A stretch of DNA of 64,000 bases from Escherichia phage MN05: sequence record NC_070987.1. One strand, given 5' to 3'. Shown here one piece after another: positions 5,014 through 30,719 of this stretch (position 1 is its first letter; each line of letters starts with the position of its first letter). The position numbers and the translations under genes were made by a program. The notes below the pieces were generated by a model. The model saw nothing but the letters and a program-made list of their open reading frames with translations, ran no database searches and had not been told where the DNA came from.

Positions 5014-5796
5014 ATGGCAATTAGAATGGGTATCGAAGAACTAGACCCAATGGTGCAACGGGCTTCAAAGAAGTATGGAATACCAGCTGCTTTGATTCAT
5101 GCTGTAATCCAAAGAGAATCTAGTGGTCGTCCTACAGTGGCCTCTGGAACTGGTCCTGTAGGTTTAATGCAGATCAGTAAAGGGTTGGCTAAAGATTACG
5201 GTTACAAACTAGAAGACAGACTTGACCCAGAAAAGAATATTGATATGGGTGCTCGTTACATAAGAGATAACTTAAAAGCTTTTAATGGTGATGTTAAGAA
5301 AGCAATGGTTGGTTATTCAGAAGGTATCGGTGGAGCTAAGCAAATGTTCGCTGGTAAAAAGGGATTTACTCCACAAGCTCTTGACTCCATGAACAATAAA
5401 CACTTTCTTCCTTTCTATGGTGATGCAGCTTCTCAGATTGCTAATCCAATTGGAGCTTTGCAAGCTGTTCAACCAGTCAATCAGTTTAATCCTGACTTGT
5501 TAGACAGAGAGAAGGCTGCACAAGCTCCCACTCAGGCAGAGATTGCTGCTTCTAAGACAGGTGCTTTAGGTGGTAATCCGGTAGAGTTTTACTCTGATGA
5601 AGTGCAGGAAGGTGAAGACCAGAAGCCTCAACAGAACTTTGGTAATGCTGTATTAGGGGTAGCTGCTATGCTTGCTGGTAAACCTCCCACCTCTCAAACA
5701 GTTCAGAGGGCAAGTGCACCACATGCAGCAGGTTCTCAGTATAGTCCACAAACACAAGCAGTGCTCAGACGTTTGGCTAGCATTGGTGTAAAGTAA
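5014..5796 (+). CDS. Virion-associated lytic transglycosylase (SLT domain)
   Basis: Motif GIPAALIHAVIQRESSGRP...GLMQI typical of the SLT catalytic domain; SD AAGGAG upstream; located among virion genes. Confidence 0.7.
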   Translation: MAIRMGIEELDPMVQRASKKYGIPAALIHAVIQRESSGRPTVASGTGPVGLMQISKGLAKDYGYKLEDRLDPEKNIDMGARYIRDNLKAFNGDVKKAMVGYSEGIGGAKQMFAGKKGFTPQALDSMNNKHFLPFYGDAASQIANPIGALQAVQPVNQFNPDLLDREKAAQAPTQAEIAASKTGALGGNPVEFYSDEVQEGEDQKPQQNFGNAVLGVAAMLAGKPPTSQTVQRASAPHAAGSQYSPQTQAVLRRLASIGVK

Positions 5797-5815
5797 TAAC
5801 CTTTAAGGAGGACTT

Positions 5816-6868
5816 ATGTCTTTATTTGGAAAATCAGCTTCTAGCAAAACCACAGTGGCCCCTTCCTCTCAGGTTGATGCCCTGCTGAAGCAGATTGTTG
5901 CTAATGCTCAGAATATGCAGAACAACGATCCGGGATTCATCTCCCAACAGCTGGCTGGGTTTAATGGCAACCAACAAGGTGCTCTTAATAACTTAGCAGC
6001 TTCTACTACTCAGAAGAAACTAGCTGATATGTACACACCTCGTACACAGCAAGGTTTAGACCAACTTAACTCTCTTGCTCAACAGTATCAGAATATTGTT
6101 AATGGTGGTGGAGTGACGGCTGAAGGGGTTAATAACTTTAGTAAAGGTTTGAATAACTCAGCTCTTGCACAAGCTACTAGTAAAGCAGCTTCTAATGTTT
6201 CTCTTGGCAATGGCTCTGATTCAGGATCTCTCCGTAGAGCTGCGGCTCAAGGGGCTGCTTTGAATGGTGCTAACACTAACCTGTCTCGTACTATCAGTGG
6301 CAAGAATATGGGTGTAAGTGCTCTTCAACAAGATCAAAACTTCCAGAGAGGGTTGCTTGGTGCTCAATCTGGTCTAGCTGGACAGAACCTCAACCTAGGT
6401 GCTCAAGGTGTTCAGGCAACTCAACAGGCTATTCAGAATCAACTCATGGCTGGCAATCTTCAACAGCAACAAGCTCAAGCTCAGGCTGATACTAATTGGC
6501 AAAATGCTATTGGTTCTCAGCAGTATGGGTGGAATCAGCTTAACAACCAGCTTAATGTATTAAATAGTGTAAGTCCGATGGCTGGATACACGATTAAGAA
6601 TTCTGCTCCGGGAGTTAATGTTGGGCAGCAGCTCCTAGGTGCTGGTATCACTGGTTTAGGTATTGCGGGTCGTATGGGTGCTTTCTCTCCTGATCAACAA
6701 ACTCAGAATGCTTGGAGTTCCTATAACAATTCAGGTGGGCAATCTGGAATGGCTGGTCCTATGATTGGAGGTTCTAATCTTTCTCAACAGAAAGGTCAAT
6801 CTAACTGGTTATCCACAACGGGTAATAATATCTTAGGCGGAGTCTTAGGGGCATTTGGAGCAAACTAA
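5816..6868 (+). CDS. Gln/Asn/Gly-rich virion (internal/ejection) protein, paralog 1
   Basis: Track ORF; SD GGAGGA; shares N-terminal MxLFG and GFNxNQ..ALNNLA motif with the next gene. Confidence 0.5.
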   Translation: MSLFGKSASSKTTVAPSSQVDALLKQIVANAQNMQNNDPGFISQQLAGFNGNQQGALNNLAASTTQKKLADMYTPRTQQGLDQLNSLAQQYQNIVNGGGVTAEGVNNFSKGLNNSALAQATSKAASNVSLGNGSDSGSLRRAAAQGAALNGANTNLSRTISGKNMGVSALQQDQNFQRGLLGAQSGLAGQNLNLGAQGVQATQQAIQNQLMAGNLQQQQAQAQADTNWQNAIGSQQYGWNQLNNQLNVLNSVSPMAGYTIKNSAPGVNVGQQLLGAGITGLGIAGRMGAFSPDQQTQNAWSSYNNSGGQSGMAGPMIGGSNLSQQKGQSNWLSTTGNNILGGVLGAFGAN

Positions 6869-16005: not shown

Positions 16006-16532
16006 TTATTCTCCTAACAGCTTACGAATTTCACTACGGAAATTATCATACTCTTCAGGGTATTCAAATCCACACTCAAGAAGAGCGTAGTGAACAACCT
16101 TCAACAAATCCTGAGCCTTATTCTTATCCTTGTGTCGATAAGCATATTTGATCATGTTGGTTTGTTGGAAGTTCAACTGAGGGTTTGCATGGTAAAACTC
16201 AACAGGTTGAATGATTTTAGATTCAGGGTTATAATGTGCACCACCAACCATAGTGTCTAAAGCTGGACTCCTTTTGCTGGCTTGTTCAGTTGTAGCTTTA
16301 AAGCTGGCTACAGGAACAGAAGAATAAATTGGATACGCTTCACCTACTGGTGGTTTTACTATCAATCTTTTCATTGCAAATCGAATTTCTGTATCAGCAG
16401 AACATGAAGAGATCTCTTCAACAGTTTTACGATAACTGTCAATAACTGCACGTAGCATAGAGACTGTCTTAGTCTTCTCTTTTAATTTCTCTGTTAGTAC
16501 AATAACTTCGGCTTTTTTGGATTCAAACTCGT

Positions 16533-16542
<10 letters not shown>
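16006..16542 (-). CDS. Hypothetical protein
   Basis: Track ORF in the co-directional packed block. Confidence 0.45.
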
Positions 16543-21518: not shown

Positions 21519-21710
21519 TCACTCTACCAATGCAGGTACTTCTATCCTTTTAACTGTGAATGACTTGTTTGGAAACTTTCGAACTAACTCTGCTGCTTTG
21601 GTTATTGCTAAGTTCTCTGTCTCAAAGATACACAGTTGACCATTTAATGCTACGAGAGTGGAGCCACCACTGTAGATGGCCCAAGATTGATAATAACTAC
21701 GAACACTCAT
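21519..21710 (-). CDS. Hypothetical protein
   Basis: Track ORF. Confidence 0.4.
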   Translation of the reverse strand: MSVRSYYQSWAIYSGGSTLVALNGQLCIFETENLAITKAAELVRKFPNKSFTVKRIEVPALVE

Positions 21711-21718
21711 AACTCACC

Positions 21719-22141
21719 TTATTTAATCTTAAAGTCTTCTGTTTTTATTGAAGCCCGAGATCCAGTTACAACACTCCCATCTTCGAGCAATTTTCCAAAA
21801 GTGAAAGATTTCTTATCTAAAACCAGATCTACTGGAAACCTCCACAACCCTGTATCGTGAACAACTATCAGTTCGTCAAAATCATCTCTAGTGTATTCCC
21901 TGACAGAGAAGTCAGTCGGCTTCCCTTGTAGCCGTATCTGCAAATACGTCCCATGTTTTGTGGGATTTTCAGAAGCCTTCTTTACTTGCACTTTTATAGT
22001 CTCAGAGTTTTTACTAGCTATAAAATCACATTTACTTTGAGGCATTATTGGGGTGTATATTTCATACCCCTCCTCAATATAATACACCTGAGCAGTTAGT
22101 TCTGCTAACATCCCAATTCTGTGGTTCTCACTTCCACTCAA
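21719..22141 (-). CDS. PD-(D/E)XK-type nuclease-like protein (tentative)
   Basis: E...D(F)...Q-V-K arrangement resembling restriction-endonuclease-fold nucleases. Confidence 0.3.
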   Translation of the reverse strand: MSGSENHRIGMLAELTAQVYYIEEGYEIYTPIMPQSKCDFIASKNSETIKVQVKKASENPTKHGTYLQIRLQGKPTDFSVREYTRDDFDELIVVHDTGLWRFPVDLVLDKKSFTFGKLLEDGSVVTGSRASIKTEDFKIK

Positions 22142-22151
22142 AATTGATCTC

Positions 22152-23996
22152 CTAGTGAGTATTCATCCAATTTAATCCAATCTGACAATCAGAAGCCAGA
22201 GGACATTCCATATTCAAATACTCACCAGCCTTCTTAACACAAAGCTCGGTGTGCTCTTTGAGTTTCTGTACATCGTTACGATTAACTGAGAATTGACCTT
22301 CATCGTGCATATCAATTACCTTAGCACAACGAACTCCATCCCTCTCAATCCACTTGTTTAGGAACATCATAGCATATTTCATAACAACAGCACCAGCACA
22401 TTGCAGGAGTGTGTTAAGAGCTTTATGAACCATAACTTTACCAGTTGCATCTCGTCTCATTGTAATCTTACGACCATCAACACCAATCAAGTATCCCTGA
22501 GCAGCCTTTTCTGTCATACGATCAATGAGGATTGCAATACATGGGTTCTCTGCCAAGAAACGTGCCCGCATCACTGAACCTTCGTCAGCCCCACCACCCA
22601 CAATTGAACCGAGCTTAGCATCACCAGCACCATAGTTGAATGCGTAGATAAATGTCTTAGCGTTGTCGCGAGTAGGAAGACCAGCAAGTTTCTGGTTGTG
22701 GGAGTGGATATCACCTTCAAGGAGAATATCACGATACATAATAGCAGAAGCTAAACCACGTTCTGCCAGAGCTTTCTTAGCTGGGTTGTTCTCTTCGATT
22801 GCCTCAGCAAGCATATCCCTACACTCTTTAATGAGGTAGTGAGCGAGCATACGAAGTTCAAGTCCAGAACCATCATACCCTAAGAATACTTCTTTACCAG
22901 CGGGTATGTAATATTTGTAAGCACCTACAGGTTTGTCTTTCTTCCCCGGCTTACCTTTCTCATAAATTACGTTAGTACCTTTTCGTATATAACAACCATC
23001 AGGAACAACGTTAGTAATAACGAAAGGACGAGAGTGATCACTGTCTGAGTTATAGTCAGACTCAAACAAACTGCGACACTCATGACCAAACAAACCACGG
23101 GAGGGAATATTAACCACGATACGATGTTTGAATCGAAAAGTCGGCGTAGCGCAGCTGTTAGCTTCTGCCGAAAGTTTACCATCTTCGCGTTCCTTTGCTA
23201 TGAGTCCACTGATAAGACCTAGCCTGTGAGCCGCTACAACGCGCCTCTTAAGCAAACTTCCGACACTCCCTAGCTCACCCCCTAACCCCTCTTCAAGAGT
23301 CTCCTCGAGGTTTGTAGGAGCTGTAGGCCACTTGTTTGAGGTAGCTAGTGCTATCTTAATCTCATCAAAAGTGATAGGTCTACGTCGGTTAGGGTTTAAA
23401 CCTAAACCAAACACATAAGCCTTCATATAGTTCTTAGTTTTAAACCTAAAATGCTTCTCTAAGAACTTCCTAATATCAGCGTCAACCATCTCGGCTGTCT
23501 GTTTCTTTTTAGCATTACCTTGTATCCAAGCTGAATACCACGCTTGATATGTTCCATACTTTCTTATATCTTTCTTAATTTCAAAAGTATTCCAAGGTTT
23601 CTTTGATACGTTAAACTCTGGAGGAAGAAAACCCTCATCCATAAGGGCTTCTTTAACTCGTGCATCTTTCGATGGGTCAAAGTCTACGTACTCTACACAG
23701 GTGAAAGCTCCACCAATGTCTTCTCTCTTCAGCCCAACCCTATCACAATAGGCTTGAGGCCACTTCTGTAAAGCTCCAGACTTCTTAAACGGCTTCATGT
23801 AAGTAGAGCCATCTAATCTCATCTTAGGTAAGAGAGGAATCAACTCTCTGTCAATATTAACAATAATCTCTTTAAGGAGGTGAACATACCACCGAGCATT
23901 TCTTCGGTTGAAACTCACTCCGTGCTTTGCTTGCTTAGAGATTATATCAGCGACAGTCATCTCTGTCAAAAATGGAAGAGCGTCCGGGTTGCTCAC
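22152..23996 (-). CDS. Family-A DNA polymerase, polymerase domain only
   Basis: Motif A DGSGLELR, motif B RDNAKTFIYAFNYGAG, motif C HDE; GTG start with SD AAGGAG; no 3'-5' exonuclease domain in this ORF. Confidence 0.8.
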   Translation of the reverse strand: MSNPDALPFLTEMTVADIISKQAKHGVSFNRRNARWYVHLLKEIIVNIDRELIPLLPKMRLDGSTYMKPFKKSGALQKWPQAYCDRVGLKREDIGGAFTCVEYVDFDPSKDARVKEALMDEGFLPPEFNVSKKPWNTFEIKKDIRKYGTYQAWYSAWIQGNAKKKQTAEMVDADIRKFLEKHFRFKTKNYMKAYVFGLGLNPNRRRPITFDEIKIALATSNKWPTAPTNLEETLEEGLGGELGSVGSLLKRRVVAAHRLGLISGLIAKEREDGKLSAEANSCATPTFRFKHRIVVNIPSRGLFGHECRSLFESDYNSDSDHSRPFVITNVVPDGCYIRKGTNVIYEKGKPGKKDKPVGAYKYYIPAGKEVFLGYDGSGLELRMLAHYLIKECRDMLAEAIEENNPAKKALAERGLASAIMYRDILLEGDIHSHNQKLAGLPTRDNAKTFIYAFNYGAGDAKLGSIVGGGADEGSVMRARFLAENPCIAILIDRMTEKAAQGYLIGVDGRKITMRRDATGKVMVHKALNTLLQCAGAVVMKYAMMFLNKWIERDGVRCAKVIDMHDEGQFSVNRNDVQKLKEHTELCVKKAGEYLNMECPLASDCQIGLNWMNTH

Positions 23997-24012
23997 TTTA
24001 TACTCCTTTAAA

Positions 24013-24435
24013 TTATTGGTAAATCAAATCCGTAAATGCTTGATTGTCTTCTATCACATCTAACACGGTAGCTTCATAACTGTAAGCCCTAACCGCCCCG
24101 TTAACAACTATCCGAGGAGTAGGTGGAGGTGGTGCATGGTTAGCCCTAGCTTCACGAGGTTGCTCTCGTACTAGATGAGCCACAACTCTTTGGTTAGCGA
24201 CTTCTTCTCTTTCTCGGATAGCTCTCTGAATGTAAGCTAACTTCATGCCCCAAGCTTCTTCAAACTCTTGAGGGTGTTTATCGCTGATAACTACATACTG
24301 ACGCTCTGGATTACCTGCCCTGATATCTGACAATAGCTCGTGGAATAAATCAAGTTCATGCTCAGTGAGACTTTCTTCAATATCATCCCACTTGAGAACT
24401 AAGAAACGGTTTTGGTGTCTAGCTGGTAATGGCAT
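24013..24435 (-). CDS. Hypothetical protein
   Basis: Track ORF. Confidence 0.45.
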   Translation of the reverse strand: MPLPARHQNRFLVLKWDDIEESLTEHELDLFHELLSDIRAGNPERQYVVISDKHPQEFEEAWGMKLAYIQRAIREREEVANQRVVAHLVREQPREARANHAPPPPTPRIVVNGAVRAYSYEATVLDVIEDNQAFTDLIYQ

Positions 24436-24598
24436 TCTACTTCACCTCTACTCTAACGTAAGTTCTCTCGCCAACATCATCTTTCCAGACCCATGCCTTA
24501 GCATCTTCTTCAGACTTAAAAGCTTTCACAACGCTGTATCCACCTTCCCATTCATCACCGAACCAGCGCTGTCCTACGTAAACATATTCTTTCATTAT

Positions 24599-24883
24599 TT
24601 AACCTTTTGGGAATGGCATTAAAGATTCCATAGCATTTTTGATATCGCTATTGATTCGTTCATCACGGTAAGAGATAAACTTACCTTTGCTATCACGTAA
24701 CATCACATGAGTTCTTGCTGTTTTATGTGGAAGTAATGTGATACTTTTTGGGATGGTGTTAAGTTCTACAGAGTAGCTATCAATAGTCTTGCTCTCGGTT
24801 AACAGGTAAGACCAAGTACGTGGTTTCTGCTCTGGGCGATTTGGGTATGTGTCTCGAATCTGAACCATAGCTAACTTATTCAT
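24599..24883 (-). CDS. Small protein, paralog pair D (1 of 2)
   Basis: C-terminal TART.V.LR...GKFISY...PFPKG shared with 24885..25136. Confidence 0.5.
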   Translation of the reverse strand: MNKLAMVQIRDTYPNRPEQKPRTWSYLLTESKTIDSYSVELNTIPKSITLLPHKTARTHVMLRDSKGKFISYRDERINSDIKNAMESLMPFPKG

Positions 24884-24884
24884 A

Positions 24885-25136
24885 TTAAACTCCTTTAGGG
24901 AATGGGATGAGGTTTTCTACTGCAACACGGAACTCTTTCTCTACATCTTTATTCTTATAAGAAATGAATTTACCATCAGCACCACGTAGGATTACGTTAG
25001 TACGAGCTGTTTTTGGGTTATGACTAATCTGGTTTGCAATGATATTAGCAATGCCGTGATTATTGGTGAACTTCCATTTAACCATACGATTGTTAGACAT
25101 TACATCAATGATATTTACAGATTTTACAATAGACAT
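24885..25136 (-). CDS. Small protein, paralog pair D (2 of 2)
   Basis: Tandem paralog of 24599..24883. Confidence 0.5.
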   Translation of the reverse strand: MSIVKSVNIIDVMSNNRMVKWKFTNNHGIANIIANQISHNPKTARTNVILRGADGKFISYKNKDVEKEFRVAVENLIPFPKGV

Positions 25137-25204
25137 ATTTATTACCTAAGAAGTTTAATTTGGTTTATATAAAAGAAAAGGCCACCCATTTGGGTAGCCT
25201 TATA

Positions 25205-25522
25205 TTACGATGAGCTTAAAGCTCCTTTTCGTGCTCCAGCCGCTTTTCCAGCTCGATTACCACTTTTGCCGCCGTTTGAACGGTTTGAGCTGACTGATTC
25301 AACACGTAAGTTGCTTGACGCATTAGAGCCTCCAGACTTGACAGCTCGTTTGTGTCCAACATCTTTACCTCTGACAGCAGCTTTTCCATCGCGCTTTTCA
25401 ACGATGCGACGTGCACGGTGGCGCTGAGCATCTCCGCTCTTGCTCCCAACGCCTGTTTCACCACGGGCAATTGCGGTACGTCTTTCTTGTGCATAATCTC
25501 TCTTTCCTACATGGTCTGCCAT
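25205..25522 (-). CDS. Highly basic Gly/Lys/Arg-rich protein
   Basis: Strong SD AAGGAG 6 nt upstream; preferred over the fully overlapping alternative frame 25216..25494. Confidence 0.5.
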   Translation of the reverse strand: MADHVGKRDYAQERRTAIARGETGVGSKSGDAQRHRARRIVEKRDGKAAVRGKDVGHKRAVKSGGSNASSNLRVESVSSNRSNGGKSGNRAGKAAGARKGALSSS

Positions 25523-25578
25523 TTAAAACTCCTTAATATATCAGTGTACACTAAGGAGTATACATTATAAGTTACTGT

Positions 25579-26316
25579 TTAAGCTTTCTTTTCCATTGCT
25601 TTAACAATCGCCTTACAGAAACCAGAACGAACAATGTCATCTGATTCCCCATCTACAATCTCAGCAAACTCATACAGATCATGTTCATCAATAAAGTTAG
25701 TAGCCCAAGTAAGACCACTCTCACGACCACGCATATCATGCTGGTTAGTATCACCCATGCAGAACAGTTGAGAGGTTTCTCCCAATCGAGTCATGATTGA
25801 GAAGGCTTCATCTTTAGTGGTGTTCTGGAACTCATCAACAATAACAATAGCATCATTGAAAGAACGACCACGGAGATATTCCAGAGGTACGAACTCAATG
25901 TTACTGTTACCGAGCTGGCATTCATAGAACCCCTTACCGTATCGCTGAGTAATAACATCAATGATAGGCATCAGGTAAGGTTCAAACTTCTCGCGCATTC
26001 CTCCCGGAAGTAACCCAAGAGAGTTACCCATGCCGACCGAAGGGCGACTCAGAATGATCTTCTGAATCTTACCGCTCTTCAGTGCGTCAATAACTGTGGA
26101 AGTGATTACAAAGGTCTTACCACAGCCCGCAGGAGCGTCTGTGAACACAACTTGTTTAGTCTTAATAGCATTGAGTAGCTCAGACTGAAACTGGTTCTGA
26201 GGGACTACAGGCTTTGCTAAAACCACCTCTTCAAACTCTCGCTTACCTTTACGAGTAACAAGTGCTTCCCGACGAAGGTCTTTCCGTGATTCTTTCCGTG
26301 ATTGACGACGACTCAT
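25579..26316 (-). CDS. phoH: PhoH-like ATPase
   Basis: Walker A APAGCGKT, LSRP, GLLPG and DEFQN motifs co-linear with PhoH. Confidence 0.8.
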   Translation of the reverse strand: MSRRQSRKESRKDLRREALVTRKGKREFEEVVLAKPVVPQNQFQSELLNAIKTKQVVFTDAPAGCGKTFVITSTVIDALKSGKIQKIILSRPSVGMGNSLGLLPGGMREKFEPYLMPIIDVITQRYGKGFYECQLGNSNIEFVPLEYLRGRSFNDAIVIVDEFQNTTKDEAFSIMTRLGETSQLFCMGDTNQHDMRGRESGLTWATNFIDEHDLYEFAEIVDGESDDIVRSGFCKAIVKAMEKKA

Positions 26317-26510
26317 TTACGCTCTCCAATTTCTTCGTAATGACACTCAGTAGTTAAACAATCTTTACAGATTGCTGTGTAAACCCTGACGTTAGTAAAT
26401 CGTTTGTTCTTCCCTTTGGTTGGAGAGCCTTTGGCAAGCTCTCTGATAACCTTGTTACTTAAATGAAGGTTTGTTCCTTCACATCTAGAGCACTTCACCA
26501 CAATGTCCAT
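26313..26510 (-). CDS. Zinc-ribbon protein
   Basis: CxxC...CxxC; ATGA overlap. Confidence 0.4.
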   Translation of the reverse strand: MDIVVKCSRCEGTNLHLSNKVIRELAKGSPTKGKNKRFTNVRVYTAICKDCLTTECHYEEIGERK

Positions 26511-26695
26511 TCAGTAAGAGACCACAGAGAGTCACCTATGTTGGCATTGTCATTCCTGATGAGGTCTTTGATTTTATCAACATCAGTTAAGTGAGTCACA
26601 TTCAAAATATCCTCAACATCCGGGGCATATTTAAATATGGCAACAATACTGTTGTGATCTTCAGCATATCTTTCTAGAACATAAACTACGCTCAT
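26495..26695 (-). CDS. Hypothetical protein
   Basis: Track ORF. Confidence 0.4.
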   Translation of the reverse strand: MSVVYVLERYAEDHNSIVAIFKYAPDVEDILNVTHLTDVDKIKDLIRNDNANIGDSLWSLTEWTLW

Positions 26696-27015
26696 GCGAC
26701 GTTAACCTCTTTATGAAGTCTGTAAACGGCTGTCGCCATACAAGCAACAGCCTCATTGTGTGGGAGATGCATACCTGTAGAACCATCCCAATCTCTGAAC
26801 TCATTGTCAAAGACTCCGGTAGGCTCTGGATACAAGGCTTGCAACTCAACCAAATCATTAGCAACTTGTTGCCATTTATCATCAGACCAGATAGGGTCAT
26901 CCAACCAGTAATACAAATAGGAATGGATGATCAATTGCCTTCTATGCCGATTAATTACTTCAGCGGGACTTATCTCACTTCCATTTGAAGTCCTAAATGT
27001 ATTACTGTCAATCAT
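26692..27015 (-). CDS. Hypothetical protein
   Basis: Track ORF. Confidence 0.45.
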   Translation of the reverse strand: MIDSNTFRTSNGSEISPAEVINRHRRQLIIHSYLYYWLDDPIWSDDKWQQVANDLVELQALYPEPTGVFDNEFRDWDGSTGMHLPHNEAVACMATAVYRLHKEVNVA

Positions 27016-27197
27016 TTCACAACCTTAAATTTGAATGTTGTTGGGTGATAATAGTGCAACCTGTTAATGGTGTGCTTTGTTTCAAGATATATCCTACAAG
27101 AGTGACACATCACATGATTTAGACCAGTCACAGGATTGGGCTTAAAGTTGGCGATAGGCTTCTCTTTCTTACAGAAGCTACAGATCTTCTTTTCCAT
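27012..27197 (-). CDS. Zinc-finger protein
   Basis: Track ORF 27012..27266 trimmed to internal Met to reduce overlap with 27178..27411; CxxC...CxxC. Confidence 0.35.
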   Translation of the reverse strand: MEKKICSFCKKEKPIANFKPNPVTGLNHVMCHSCRIYLETKHTINRLHYYHPTTFKFKVVK

Positions 27198-27411
27198 CTT
27201 TTCTCCAGTGGTCAACGAATTGCTGAAACACTTTATGGTCGAATGTGAAACCGCTAGCAATTCCACACTCTACGAAAGTAGAAGGCATATAGTCTATATC
27301 ATCTTTAGATGTATGACCATAAACTTGAATAAGCTTTTTAATCTTATCCTTCTCTCTTCGAGGAAGCATTCTAAATGCCTCCTGAATATCTGTAATATGT
27401 TTGATTTTCAT
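27178..27411 (-). CDS. Hypothetical protein
   Basis: Track ORF. Confidence 0.4.
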   Translation of the reverse strand: MKIKHITDIQEAFRMLPRREKDKIKKLIQVYGHTSKDDIDYMPSTFVECGIASGFTFDHKVFQQFVDHWRKDGKEDL

Positions 27412-27423
27412 CAGAAATTCCTG

Positions 27424-27558
27424 CTAATCCTCTGAGTTGTGGGAACAGCAATATTCACATACTCCACAACAAGGGCAGATTTCTACACTTGGGTCATATG
27501 CATCATCAACTGTCATCCCACACTTGGTGCAGAACACATCGTCATCTTCTTCCAACAT
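27424..27558 (-). CDS. Cys-rich small protein (44 aa, below the track cutoff)
   Basis: SD GGAGAG; ATG overlaps the ThyX stop (TAATG). Confidence 0.35.
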   Translation of the reverse strand: MLEEDDDVFCTKCGMTVDDAYDPSVEICPCCGVCEYCCSHNSED

Positions 27559-28214
27559 TAACTCTCCAAAGTTTTCTTCAGAGCTGCCCACGAGATTGGG
27601 TAGAGCTTAGCCATCTCTTCATCCAGAGATTGAGCAAACACTCGAACTTCATATTGAGCGTGAGAGGAAAGTCGCTGACGACACAACTCAAACCAGCCAT
27701 ACAAAGAACCAGTCCACACCCACTCAGTGATCATCCCCTGAGGAAGAACAAATCGAGCTTGCTCTGGTGCAACAAATTCAATCAACTTATCATATGCTGC
27801 TAGAGAGGCTTCATATGCATCGTTAATCAACATTAATGCTTCAGCTCGTTCTCCATTGATGAGTTGAATCCCTGAACCTGCATGGAGGTCCGAAGGTCTC
27901 GCAAAAATCTCTTTAGGGATGAAGACTTCAACTGCTCCATCTTTATACCGCCGGGACATTTCGTTCCACGAGAATCCAACCTGATGCTTGCCCAACTGTC
28001 TCGCAATTGCGATAGGTGCTTTGCATCGGAAACTGACTTGCGGGTGTCGGAATGGGGTAACATGCTTCTCTCTTGCGAGGAAGTTGATGAGACGTTCATC
28101 ACGTTCATTTAAATCACCTTCACGGGTTACGCCAAAGGAAACTCGAGCTGCGTTTACTACGCTACGATCACTTCCCATAGCTTCGATTAATGTTGCTTGT
28201 AATTGTTCATTCAT
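27558..28214 (-). CDS. thyX: Flavin-dependent thymidylate synthase ThyX (divergent signature motif)
   Basis: Co-linear with ThyX (AARVSF...TPF.H...KAPI.IARQ...S....SRRY...SHAQ); the RHR motif position reads KHQ. Confidence 0.75.
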   Translation of the reverse strand: MNEQLQATLIEAMGSDRSVVNAARVSFGVTREGDLNERDERLINFLAREKHVTPFRHPQVSFRCKAPIAIARQLGKHQVGFSWNEMSRRYKDGAVEVFIPKEIFARPSDLHAGSGIQLINGERAEALMLINDAYEASLAAYDKLIEFVAPEQARFVLPQGMITEWVWTGSLYGWFELCRQRLSSHAQYEVRVFAQSLDEEMAKLYPISWAALKKTLES

Positions 28215-28229
28215 CCGTGAATTTCCTTA

Positions 28230-28445
28230 TTAATATTCCTTGATTGGAGAAACTACAAAACCACCCAGAACTGACATATGGGATTGTCTTAAACTTACCG
28301 TATTGACAGGCATTGGTACAACTTTTAAAGCTTTCTTGAAACGACGAGCCTCTTTTCTGGTCTTAAAGTTTTCTGAAAAAGGGACTGGATTGTCCCCCAC
28401 GTAATACACCACTGTCCAGAAATATTTAATCTTTTCCATATTCAC
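28230..28445 (-). CDS. Small protein, family B (TRKEAR..KK motif)
   Basis: Shares the TR(K/E)EAR..KK core and C-terminal Y with 30301..30916. Confidence 0.45.
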   Translation of the reverse strand: MNMEKIKYFWTVVYYVGDNPVPFSENFKTRKEARRFKKALKVVPMPVNTVSLRQSHMSVLGGFVVSPIKEY

Positions 28446-28717
28446 TTAACACCTAAAGCTGTGTCCAAAAATGCTTTCAGGTTTGCTTCAGTCTGCATAC
28501 CAGAGAGGCTGTAATGTGCACCACTGTTACGATCAGGCACAACGAAAGCAGGGATGCTTCGTACACCATACTTAACAGCTTGCTCACGACCATCACCTTC
28601 AAGGATGTTAATCTCTTCCACTTCTACATCAAACTCCTTAACAACCTTCTCAAAGGTAGGAGCCATTGCTTTACATGGAGCACACTGATCACTATAAAAC
28701 TTAATTACTTTACTCAT
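28442..28717 (-). CDS. Thioredoxin / glutaredoxin-like protein
   Basis: CAPC active-site motif in thioredoxin-fold context; track ORF trimmed to ATG 28717 with SD AAGGA. Confidence 0.6.
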   Translation of the reverse strand: MSKVIKFYSDQCAPCKAMAPTFEKVVKEFDVEVEEINILEGDGREQAVKYGVRSIPAFVVPDRNSGAHYSLSGMQTEANLKAFLDTALGVK

Positions 28718-28907
28718 TCTATTCCTTGTTAATAAACAGGTTGATATGACGCTGGGTAGCAGGAACAACAATAAAAGATTTATACTGACCTTTTGCTAGG
28801 TCATGAGCAATCTTCTTTGTCTGACCAAGACCCATCACACAGCCACTAACGATAATGGCATGTGCTTGTAATTCTTCAGGTAGGTTTAGTTTCACTCTTT
28901 GGATCCC

Positions 28908-30300: not shown

Positions 30301-30510
30301 TCAGTAGTAAATTACTTTAGACATAAAAGAACCAGTGTTAGGGTCTTCATACCAGCGATGTATGTCAGCGCTTTTTACTATTGTGCCCAGAGTCTTCAAC
30401 TGTTTCTTAGCAATACGAGCCTCTTTGCGAGTGTCAAACAATTTGATGCTATCTTTTCTCATGTGTTGCTCAAGATCCCAAACAACATGAATAGCCCACA
30501 TCTTTTTCAT
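30301..30510 (-). CDS. Small protein, family B
   Basis: FDTRKEARIAKKQLK...VIYY. Confidence 0.5.
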   Translation of the reverse strand: MKKMWAIHVVWDLEQHMRKDSIKLFDTRKEARIAKKQLKTLGTIVKSADIHRWYEDPNTGSFMSKVIYY

Positions 30511-30719
30511 TAGTAATGCACCTTTCCGCTGATATAAACACGACCAGAAGAATACTCCTTGGCCTTATGGATACTGATACTATTGACCACGTCACCAGTA
30601 AGCATAGTCTTTTTAAAATCTCGAGCTTGTTGGCGAGTGGGTAGTGCAGTCATAGTCATGCCACCTGATGCCCACTTAATCTTTGCTAACCAAAATTTTC
30701 TCATAGTGATTGGTCTCAT
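30510..30719 (-). CDS. Small protein, family B
   Basis: LPTRQQARDFKKTML...KVHY. Confidence 0.5.
   Translation of the reverse strand: MRPITMRKFWLAKIKWASGGMTMTALPTRQQARDFKKTMLTGDVVNSISIHKAKEYSSGRVYISGKVHY

Follow-up and report, generated by a model that had tools for sequence, protein, structure and literature searches.

The KHQ motif in the ThyX-family protein of Escherichia phage MN05 and its place among flavin-dependent thymidylate synthases

Escherichia phage MN05, a phiEco32-like phage, encodes a full-length ThyX-family protein. ThyX is defined in the literature by the signature RHRX7-8S (PMC2826268). At the position of the Arg-His-Arg (RHR) triad the MN05 protein reads Lys-His-Gln (KHQ), which our alignments show to be characteristic of a very large ThyX subfamily that is rich in phage members and also includes cellular ones. 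With a probability of roughly 0.8, we predict that the protein is a functional flavin-dependent thymidylate synthase (EC 2.1.1.148) of a Kuravirus phage, which forms dTMP from dUMP, CH2-H4folate and NADPH. The gene itself is already known and annotated. Most likely it represents an under-studied ThyX branch, with a predicted ordinary dTMP-making enzyme.

The thyX gene and the KHQ motif

The window, by which we mean the whole stretch of DNA that was analysed, comprises 64,000 nucleotides of the MN05 sequence record NC_070987.1. The gene and its motif region are located in it as follows.

27558..28214, minus strand: thyX-like gene of the non-RHR (KHQ) subfamily, a 218-aa ORF with ATG start
28224..28228, minus strand: ribosome-binding site AAGGA, 9 nt 5′ of the thyX ATG, read from the sequence
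27945..28004, minus strand: extended ThyX-motif region A71-Y90, aligned to T. maritima A73-Y91, codons checked by hand
27981..27989, minus strand: K76-H77-Q78, opposite the canonical R-H-R triad in HMMER and MAFFT alignments

The ORF upstream ends with its stop codon at 28230-28232, and thyX thus abuts it in a tightly packed operon. The product matches the Pfam family Thy1 (PF02511) with an E-value of 1.4e-43 and 149.4 bits (cutoff 24.8), and the match runs end to end, with residues 8-206 on positions 1-190 of the 191 of the profile. The NCBIfam equivalog model TIGR02170 (thyX) gave 127.7 bits (cutoff 87.9), and PHROG 85 'thymidylate synthase' was matched as well. A ligand-free AlphaFold2 monomer model reached a pLDDT of 95.1 and a pTM of 0.88. 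When this model was compared with the PDB by Foldseek, each of the top 50 matches was a T. maritima ThyX structure, with TM 0.77-0.83 across some 210 columns; model and comparison assign the ThyX fold to the protein. ThyX enzymes characteristically form homotetramers with bound FAD, and three subunits contribute to each active site. By tblastn, a gene of Escherichia phage PE006 is 99.5% identical to MN05 ThyX, and the 4 kb surrounding thyX show 93-97% identity to members of the genus Kuravirus, which are phiEco32-like podophages of E. coli (such as NJ01, 172-1, WFI101126, Paul and MN03). Kuravirus records label the gene 'thymidylate synthase / ThyX', and it is annotated in this way in more than 90 related genomes.

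In HMMER alignments to the solved ThyX enzymes of T. maritima (TM0449; PDB 1O26) and T. thermophilus (6J61), both of the canonical RHR type, the MN05 protein is co-linear over its whole length with about 32-34% identity. The segment 'ARQLGKHQVGFSWNEMSRRY' stands opposite 'ARQWFRHRIA-SYNELSGRY'; T. maritima R78-H79-R80 corresponds to K76-H77-Q78 in MN05 and one extra residue follows the triad, ahead of Ser82. The same register was obtained in two MAFFT alignments with 93 and 464 sequences. Codons aag (K76, 27987-27989), cat (H77, 27984-27986) and cag (Q78, 27981-27983) were checked by hand. The complete region A71-Y90 reads A-R-Q-L-G-K76-H77-Q78-V-G80-F-S82-W-N-E85-M-S87-R88-R89-Y90 and keeps both motif serines, S82 being equivalent to T. 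maritima S83 and S87 to S88. In place of R-H-R-X7-8-S, MN05 therefore carries K76-H77-Q78-X8-S87, in which the His, the X8 spacing and the Ser are retained and both Arg are replaced. The original prediction, made from the sequence alone, had described a co-linear ThyX homologue with KHQ at the RHR position, a one-residue insertion and the signature Ser residues, and all of this was confirmed by the profile matches and alignments. It had also named an intact RHR elsewhere as a finding that would speak against it; none was found in the whole MN05 ThyX sequence or in the alignments. Since KHQ is a homology-based observation, chance is not at issue.

ThyX enzymes of actinobacteriophages (Mycobacterium phage Bxz1 gp91, Gordonia phage Magel, Streptomyces phage Joe) are phage-encoded like that of MN05 and share with it the motif shape x-H-x-[SVA]-G-[WF]-S-[YW]-N-E-x-S with X8 spacing. 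However, they keep R-H-R as well as S-G-R-Y, and the tree split described below places them with the RHR sequences. The one-residue insertion is present in these RHR-type enzymes, too (RHRSGWSY in Bxz1, RHRVGFSY in Magel, RHRAGWSY in Joe), and is therefore unrelated to the loss of RHR; the idea that it forms part of that loss was rejected. In terms of the published RHRX7-8S motif, it corresponds to the X8 spacing.

Distribution of the non-RHR subfamily

Close homologues were collected as the best 120 sequences from a collection of 5.8 billion proteins. They are 54-92% identical to the query, and many of them are encoded on phage contigs of 50-100 kb. All 115 pattern-matched sequences among these 120 carry KHQxGFSWNExSRRY. 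An exhaustive phmmer search over 1.84e9 cluster representatives (50% identity) resulted in 6949 matches, 349 of which were below 1e-30. RHR was observed in none of the best 150 representatives (0/150; 39-56% identity), which instead share the pattern ARQ-x-x-[K/R]-[H/S]-x-[V/I]-G-...-[N/S]-E-x-S-R-R-Y. Their triad is most often KHQ, besides which KHK, KHT, RHT, RST and KSQ are seen. In IMG/VR, ARQL[GVA]KHQ or WNExSRRY was found in at least 598 confirmed stretches. With clustering at 50% identity, the clade counts at least 150 clusters, and it is represented on hundreds of viral contigs. Its active-site region is invariant in homologues down to 40% identity. A private mutation or a sequencing error as the source of KHQ was ruled out by the invariance of the motif in hundreds of homologues. 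In several clade members, inteins have repeatedly inserted exactly into the KHQ motif.

The two types were also separated in a neighbour-joining tree of 197 sequences (72% non-redundant), in which one split parts 20 RHR from 177 non-RHR sequences without error; the sample was gathered by similarity to the query and to a canonical profile, and this sampling limits how far the clade boundary can be relied on. MN05 ThyX lies on the non-RHR side. We define the non-RHR subfamily by [K/R]-[H/S/Y]-x-[V/I]-G ... [N/S]-E-x-S-R-R-Y together with a residue other than Glu at T. maritima E58 and other than Arg at T. maritima R165, and MN05 shows each of these features with K76-H77-Q78-V79-G80, S87-R88-R89-Y90, R56 and Y172. 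In the same clade are the KHK enzymes of N4-like phages (Vibrio phage VBP47, Pectobacterium phage CB1) and of Rheinheimera Barba phages, and the K-Y-[IV] forms of Streptomyces phage BoomerJR, a Geobacillus siphophage and Firmicute chromosomes or dfrE-linked plasmids. These other non-RHR enzymes resemble that of MN05 in S-R-R-Y and in the loss of T. maritima R80, R165 and E58, but differ in having K, T, V or I at the third triad position and Y or S in place of the His; in the Firmicute members, the loop before W-N-E is 8-12 residues longer. RHR-type ThyX is encoded by phages as well, namely Bxz1, Thermus phiLo, PaMx25, ACP17, RcPeripeteia, Syn5, PSS2 and Aristophanes.

Our literature search found no biochemically or structurally characterised non-RHR member, and no paper that describes the branch or assays a member, although it may already be covered by Liu and Yang (2004, J Bacteriol 186:6316; cited in PMC4913046), whose title speaks of 'distinctive ThyX motifs' in intein-containing bacterial ThyX. 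As far as the title and the citing text go, the intein is a feature shared with the clade members mentioned above. The ThyX chains of the PDB among the matches listed are all RHR-type or known as such. The ThyX proteins of Borrelia plasmids, considered as possible experimentally studied non-RHR enzymes, proved to be RHR-type. In a study of lateral gene transfer, sequences deviating from RHRX7-8S were discarded (PMC2826268). For two decades ThyX sequences have been recognised and filtered by this motif, yet a very large branch of the family lacks it. The branch is mostly viral but has members on bacterial chromosomes and on trimethoprim-resistance plasmids (dfrE-thyX) as well.

Residues kept and residues switched between the classes

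In one alignment, 133 RHR-class sequences were compared with 331 non-RHR sequences. Besides the triad, this comparison points to three positions in MN05 ThyX.

28047..28049, minus strand: R56, at the T. maritima E58 position
27951..27953, minus strand: R88, at the T. maritima G89 position, an Arg gained in S-R-R-Y
27699..27701, minus strand: Y172, at the T. maritima R165 position, where the FAD-phosphate-binding Arg is lost

Conserved to at least 85% in both classes are T. maritima H53, R74, Q75, E86, S88, R90, Y91, E144, R147 and R174, all of them shared by the MN05 protein in direct comparison, as well as Q180 and E182. Their MN05 equivalents are H51, R72, Q73, E85, S87, R89, Y90, E151, R154, R181, Q187 and E189. 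Conservation reaches at least 98% in both classes for the residues assigned to dUMP binding and catalysis (Q75, E86, S88, R90, Y91, R147, R174) and for those assigned to the folate/flavin side (H53, E144), and MN05 retains this set as Q73, E85, S87, R89, Y90, R154, R181, H51 and E151. R174 reads the uracil O4/N3. The kept residues include every T. maritima mutant-structure target in the Foldseek list of PDB matches (H53, S88, R90, Y91, E144, R174). Of the four residues that form hydrogen bonds to dUMP according to Basta et al. (2012, PMC3498832), S88 and R90 are kept, whereas R78 is replaced by Lys and R80 by Gln.

A second group of positions switches between the classes. At T. maritima R78, all 133 RHR-class sequences have Arg, in contrast to Lys in 306 (92%) and Arg in 24 of the 331 non-RHR sequences; the query has K76. 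R80 is likewise invariant in the RHR class (133/133), compared to Gln in 234, Ile in 31, Lys in 17 and Arg in only 2 of the 331; the query has Q78. At E58, Glu is found in 133 of 133 RHR sequences and never in the other class (Arg 189, Ala 61, Gly 33, others), and at R165, Arg in 128 of 133 (96%) stands against Tyr (162), Gln (45) and Ala (36). N163 is mostly Asn in the RHR class and Ser in the non-RHR class (S170 in the query), and the R143 position carries Lys or Arg in the former and Pro in the latter (P150). Conversely, an Arg at the G89 position is present in 317 of the 331 non-RHR sequences and in none of the 133 RHR sequences, which have G, Q, L or A. The change from S-G-R-Y to S-R-R-Y puts this Arg beside the dUMP-phosphate pocket. 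Relative to T. maritima ThyX, MN05 thus carries R78K, R80Q, G89R, E58R, R165Y, N163S and R143P. E58, R80 and R165 switch together between the classes, and the gain of R88 covaries with the loss of the third triad Arg; this covariation defines the clade and therefore amounts to a single evolutionary event or a handful of them, and the hundreds of sequences are not independent cases.

The roles published for these positions suggest which part of the site was changed. According to a 2019 review (PMC6514825), the RHR triad together with R190 of the M. tuberculosis (Mtb) enzyme and Ser71 forms hydrogen bonds to the AMP-phosphate, the ribityl chain and the FMN-phosphate of FAD, and only the first triad Arg also contacts the isoalloxazine and dUMP. 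Mtb R190, which is equivalent to T. maritima R165, and Hp R165 hydrogen-bond the FAD phosphates (PMC6514825). The original prediction had called RHR a substrate-phosphate-binding motif. This holds in so far as R78 and R80 hydrogen-bond dUMP (PMC3498832), but the triad chiefly binds FAD (PMC6514825). The canonical FAD-phosphate and ribityl contacts made by the triad and R165 are missing in MN05, where R80 is replaced by Q78 and R165 by Y172. In our reading, the assigned nucleotide and catalytic site would be intact and the flavin-diphosphate cradle rebuilt. Because the RHR signature and the canonical flavin-phosphate contacts are absent, we regard the MN05 protein as a member of a variant branch and not as a plain ThyX; its membership in the family is otherwise supported by model, fold and catalytic residues.

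Predicted function and alternative readings

Across the subfamily, [K/R]-[H/S/Y]-x stands in for the R-H-R triad, the second flavin-phosphate Arg (T. maritima R165) and E58 have given way to other residues, and an Arg has been added beside the dUMP-phosphate pocket. We propose that the phosphate contacts of R78 and R80 would then be taken over by K76 and the new R88, and the ADP part of the flavin would be held in a different manner. The functional replacement of the lost triad Arg by the Arg of S-R-R-Y is suggested by their covariation, and the compensation by R88 and K76 is likewise drawn from covariation and not from coordinates. A side chain at this site has a precedent in PBCV-1 ThyX, where Gln-89 can fill the dUMP-phosphate pocket (PMC3498832).

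The gene is part of a leftward early/middle block that, besides thyX, carries genes for dCTP deaminase, thioredoxin, PhoH, replication proteins and a DUF3310 kinase. Three of these neighbours are relevant here.

31120..31653, minus strand: dCTP deaminase (Pfam DCD, 3.7e-34; TIGR02274 equivalog, 107.8 bits, cutoff 92.8)
28442..28771, minus strand: thioredoxin (Pfam Thioredoxin, 1.7e-13)
16006..16542, minus strand: DUF3310-containing nucleotide kinase, T7 gp1.7-like (Pfam DUF3310; PHROG 26149)

The true start of the thioredoxin is probably an internal Met at about 28717, and the thioredoxin CDS of a relative has 273 bp. The kinase matches PHROG 26149 'deoxynucleoside monophosphate kinase' with an E-value of 5.5e-106. 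A dCTP-deaminase-family gene nearby had been part of the original prediction and is indeed present. The deaminase would supply dUTP and then, via host Dut, dUMP, and the gp1.7-like kinase would phosphorylate dTMP. ThyX, phage dCTP deaminase, host dUTPase and kinase could together shift dC pools towards dTTP. The E. coli host has a GC content of about 51% and the window one of 41.8%, and additional dTTP would therefore be useful. No ThyA annotation was found in the inspected parts of the relatives' genomes. ThyX-family places numbered 1407 in the 1407 matching phage records; therefore, no second ThyX paralogue appears. A point against the main reading is that the host has ThyA, so that a thymidylate synthase role of the gene is not required for phage viability.

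The contexts of non-RHR thyX genes elsewhere were compared as well. On 80 viral contigs, 124 larger ORFs adjoin KHQ-type thyX, most commonly those for DnaB helicase (14), ribonucleotide reductase (11) and PolA (8), and further ones for primase, 5'-3' exonuclease and gp32/gp59. In the 1.79-Mb Spirochaetia chromosome OZ251568.1, a KHQ-type gene with 47% identity to the query is flanked on one side by citrate synthase/oxidoreductase genes and on the other by convergent pyrD and pyrF-pyrE, and this arrangement is syntenic in a second MAG. KY-type thyX is syntenic in three Fusibacter species, adjoined by genes for acetate kinase, YceD and a HIGH-nucleotidyltransferase. A KY-type thyX is also found immediately behind dfrE, which encodes a trimethoprim-resistant DHFR, on plasmids of S. 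aureus and Enterococcus. These phage, chromosome and plasmid contexts are as expected of a working thymidylate synthase and hard to square with a dead protein or a phage DNA-modification enzyme.

The original prediction had suggested that the substrate specificity may be changed or the canonical activity lost. On present evidence neither seems to apply: KHQ is clade-wide and strongly conserved, the Arg of S-R-R-Y covaries with it, the assigned nucleotide and catalytic residues appear intact, and the bacterial pyrimidine and folate contexts point to ordinary dTMP supply. A decayed ThyX, which would be a pseudoenzyme or act only as an NADPH oxidase or nucleotide binder, could be supposed from the loss of two of the three signature residues and from the ThyA already supplied by the host. 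However, the ORF is intact, has a ribosome-binding site and lies in an operon, its product passes the TIGR02170 equivalog cutoff with a margin, and the active-site stretch is extremely conserved in homologues down to 40% identity. Moreover, the repeated invasion of the motif by inteins is typical of functionally essential sites, and loss of activity is scarcely credible. Also very improbable is a retargeted enzyme that uses another nucleotide or another C5 chemistry (dUMP hydroxymethylation, dCMP or UMP methylation) and gives rise to a modified base in phage DNA. 5-Hydroxymethyl-dUMP can be trapped from the ThyX reaction, and in MN05 the departure from the signature motif and the proximity of a dCTP-deaminase-family gene and an uncharacterised 451-aa 'nucleotidyltransferase' would fit such a change. 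A precedent for retargeting is PolB of Streptomyces, a ThyX paralogue with relaxed specificity that serves polyoxin biosynthesis and not plain dTMP supply (PMC5954106). The change in PolB, compared here by description only, concerns sugar specificity (UMP as well as dUMP), and unlike PolB, the MN05 gene is not accompanied by an antibiotic-type cluster. On the other hand, T. maritima R174 and the other residues assigned to dUMP binding are conserved in essentially 100% of both classes, the same subfamily occurs in bacterial housekeeping pyrimidine loci and dfrE operons, and its neighbours on viral contigs are ordinary replication and RNR genes. We know of no link between PolB and the loss of RHR. 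Companions of hypermodification (e.g. 5-hmdU DNA kinase, glycosyl or amino-acid transferases) were absent among the annotated neighbours of thyX, and the 25 Pfam families seen most often next to KHQ-type thyX on viral contigs include no hypermodification enzymes. The phage does carry an unexplained ATP-grasp/amidoligase/GATase cluster in addition to the gene for the 451-aa 'nucleotidyltransferase'. Also against a modified base, phiEco32 DNA was mapped by restriction digestion and subcloned (PMC9965538), and the near-complete avoidance of CCWGG in the window (0 and 2 sites observed, about 35 expected each) is that of a phage relying on site avoidance and not on base modification.

The third alternative keeps the chemistry and changes the handling of the cofactor: the rebuilt flavin-diphosphate site would alter which flavin is bound or how tightly, for instance FAD that is loosely held or exchanges, FMN instead of FAD, or a reductive half-reaction of another kind, and with kinetics unlike those of the slow canonical ThyX. 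The class-switching positions are those that contact the FAD phosphates and ribityl chain (RHR triad, Mtb R190; PMC6514825), and R80, R165, N163 and E58 change together while the assigned dUMP site is kept. Against it, the triad His and the first basic residue are mostly kept, and we consider this alternative possible but doubtful. It is less a competitor of the main explanation than a refinement of it, and deserves attention. With the R80 contacts to dUMP and FAD and the R165 contact to FAD missing, kinetics, flavin affinity and even chemistry could differ. Tentatively, the non-RHR clade might be a mechanistically distinct ThyX branch in which other residues bind the flavin ADP, or the flavin itself is another or an exchangeable one, and R88 replaces R80 at the dUMP phosphate. 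If so, rate, reductant and inhibitor sensitivity would be unlike those of RHR enzymes, on which current ThyX structures and drug design all rest. A rebuilt cradle that alters kinetics or inhibitor binding would matter for ThyX as an antibacterial target and for metagenome estimates of viral thymidylate synthesis. For the MN05 window, little changes, and the gene is almost certainly that of a phage thymidylate synthase.

Plasmid-borne thyX genes

On the S. aureus plasmid NZ_LC377539.1 (locus L181), a KY-type non-RHR thyX immediately follows the trimethoprim-resistant DHFR gene dfrE. The same order, dfrE and then a KY-type thyX, was found on 19 more Staphylococcus and Enterococcus plasmid records, and the pair looks like a mobile folate/thymidylate operon on these plasmids. 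An RHR-type thyX is carried by the Borreliella burgdorferi plasmid NZ_CP077737.1 (locus L179, 159-956). Its product reads S-G-C-Y, with Cys at the equivalent of T. maritima ThyX R90, a departure from the S-x-R-Y found in essentially every other member of the family. The ThyX of relapsing-fever Borrelia keeps S-G-R-Y.

Mobile insertions in non-RHR ThyX homologues

Mobile insertions of three kinds were observed in non-RHR ThyX homologues, namely inteins at two sites and one in-frame domain. HNH-type inteins are inserted exactly at KHQxGF|[S/C]WNE, and the second intein site lies after the equivalent of His51. In the loop after 'KQGS', an HNH-like domain is inserted in frame. The insertion-bearing homologues form three groups (P0122, P0137/P0271, P0187 and P0257; P0221 and P0229; P0153, P0157, P0180, P0208 and P0241).

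Genes near thyX

The following ORFs of the window were considered:
26692-27015, minus strand: Nlig-Ia-only ORF, 107 aa (Pfam PF22745, E 3.6e-35)
28230-28445, 30301-30510, 30510-30719 and 30719-30916, all minus strand: four small ORFs, 65-71 aa
29343-29963, minus strand: ferritin/Dps-like ORF, two genes away from thyX
31663-33018, minus strand: 451-aa ORF, directly downstream (window coordinates) of the dCTP deaminase gene

The 107-aa ORF encodes nothing but the NAD+-binding Nlig-Ia domain of a DNA ligase; the adenylation and OB domains are absent. In the records of relatives it is nevertheless labelled 'DNA ligase'. The four small ORFs flank the thyX-thioredoxin segment and, judged by eye, look paralogous. 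Common to them are the core T-R-x-E/Q-A-R-x-x-K-K and a Tyr at the C terminus. In an IMG/VR contig (L099), a ferritin-like ORF (5660-6100) directly adjoins a 64%-identical thyX. For the 451-aa ORF, Pfam and NCBIfam gave no match; PHROG 12715 'nucleotidyltransferase' was the only match in the three collections.

In phage Paul (L001), a conserved cluster at 21524-27505, within the same leftward block, comprises an ATP-grasp enzyme, a glutamine amidotransferase, an amidoligase and a gamma-glutamyl cyclotransferase, and an equivalent region is present in the relatives of the window. The Pseudomonas phages PPAY/PPAT also pair GATase, amidoligase, PhoH, thioredoxin and ThyX (PMC9348578).

Restriction-site content

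Comparison of observed with expected site counts over 1-64000 showed that CCWGG (Dcm/EcoRII) sites are almost wholly avoided, with no CCAGG (35 expected) and two CCTGG (36 expected). GATC is mildly depleted (158 observed, 236 expected).
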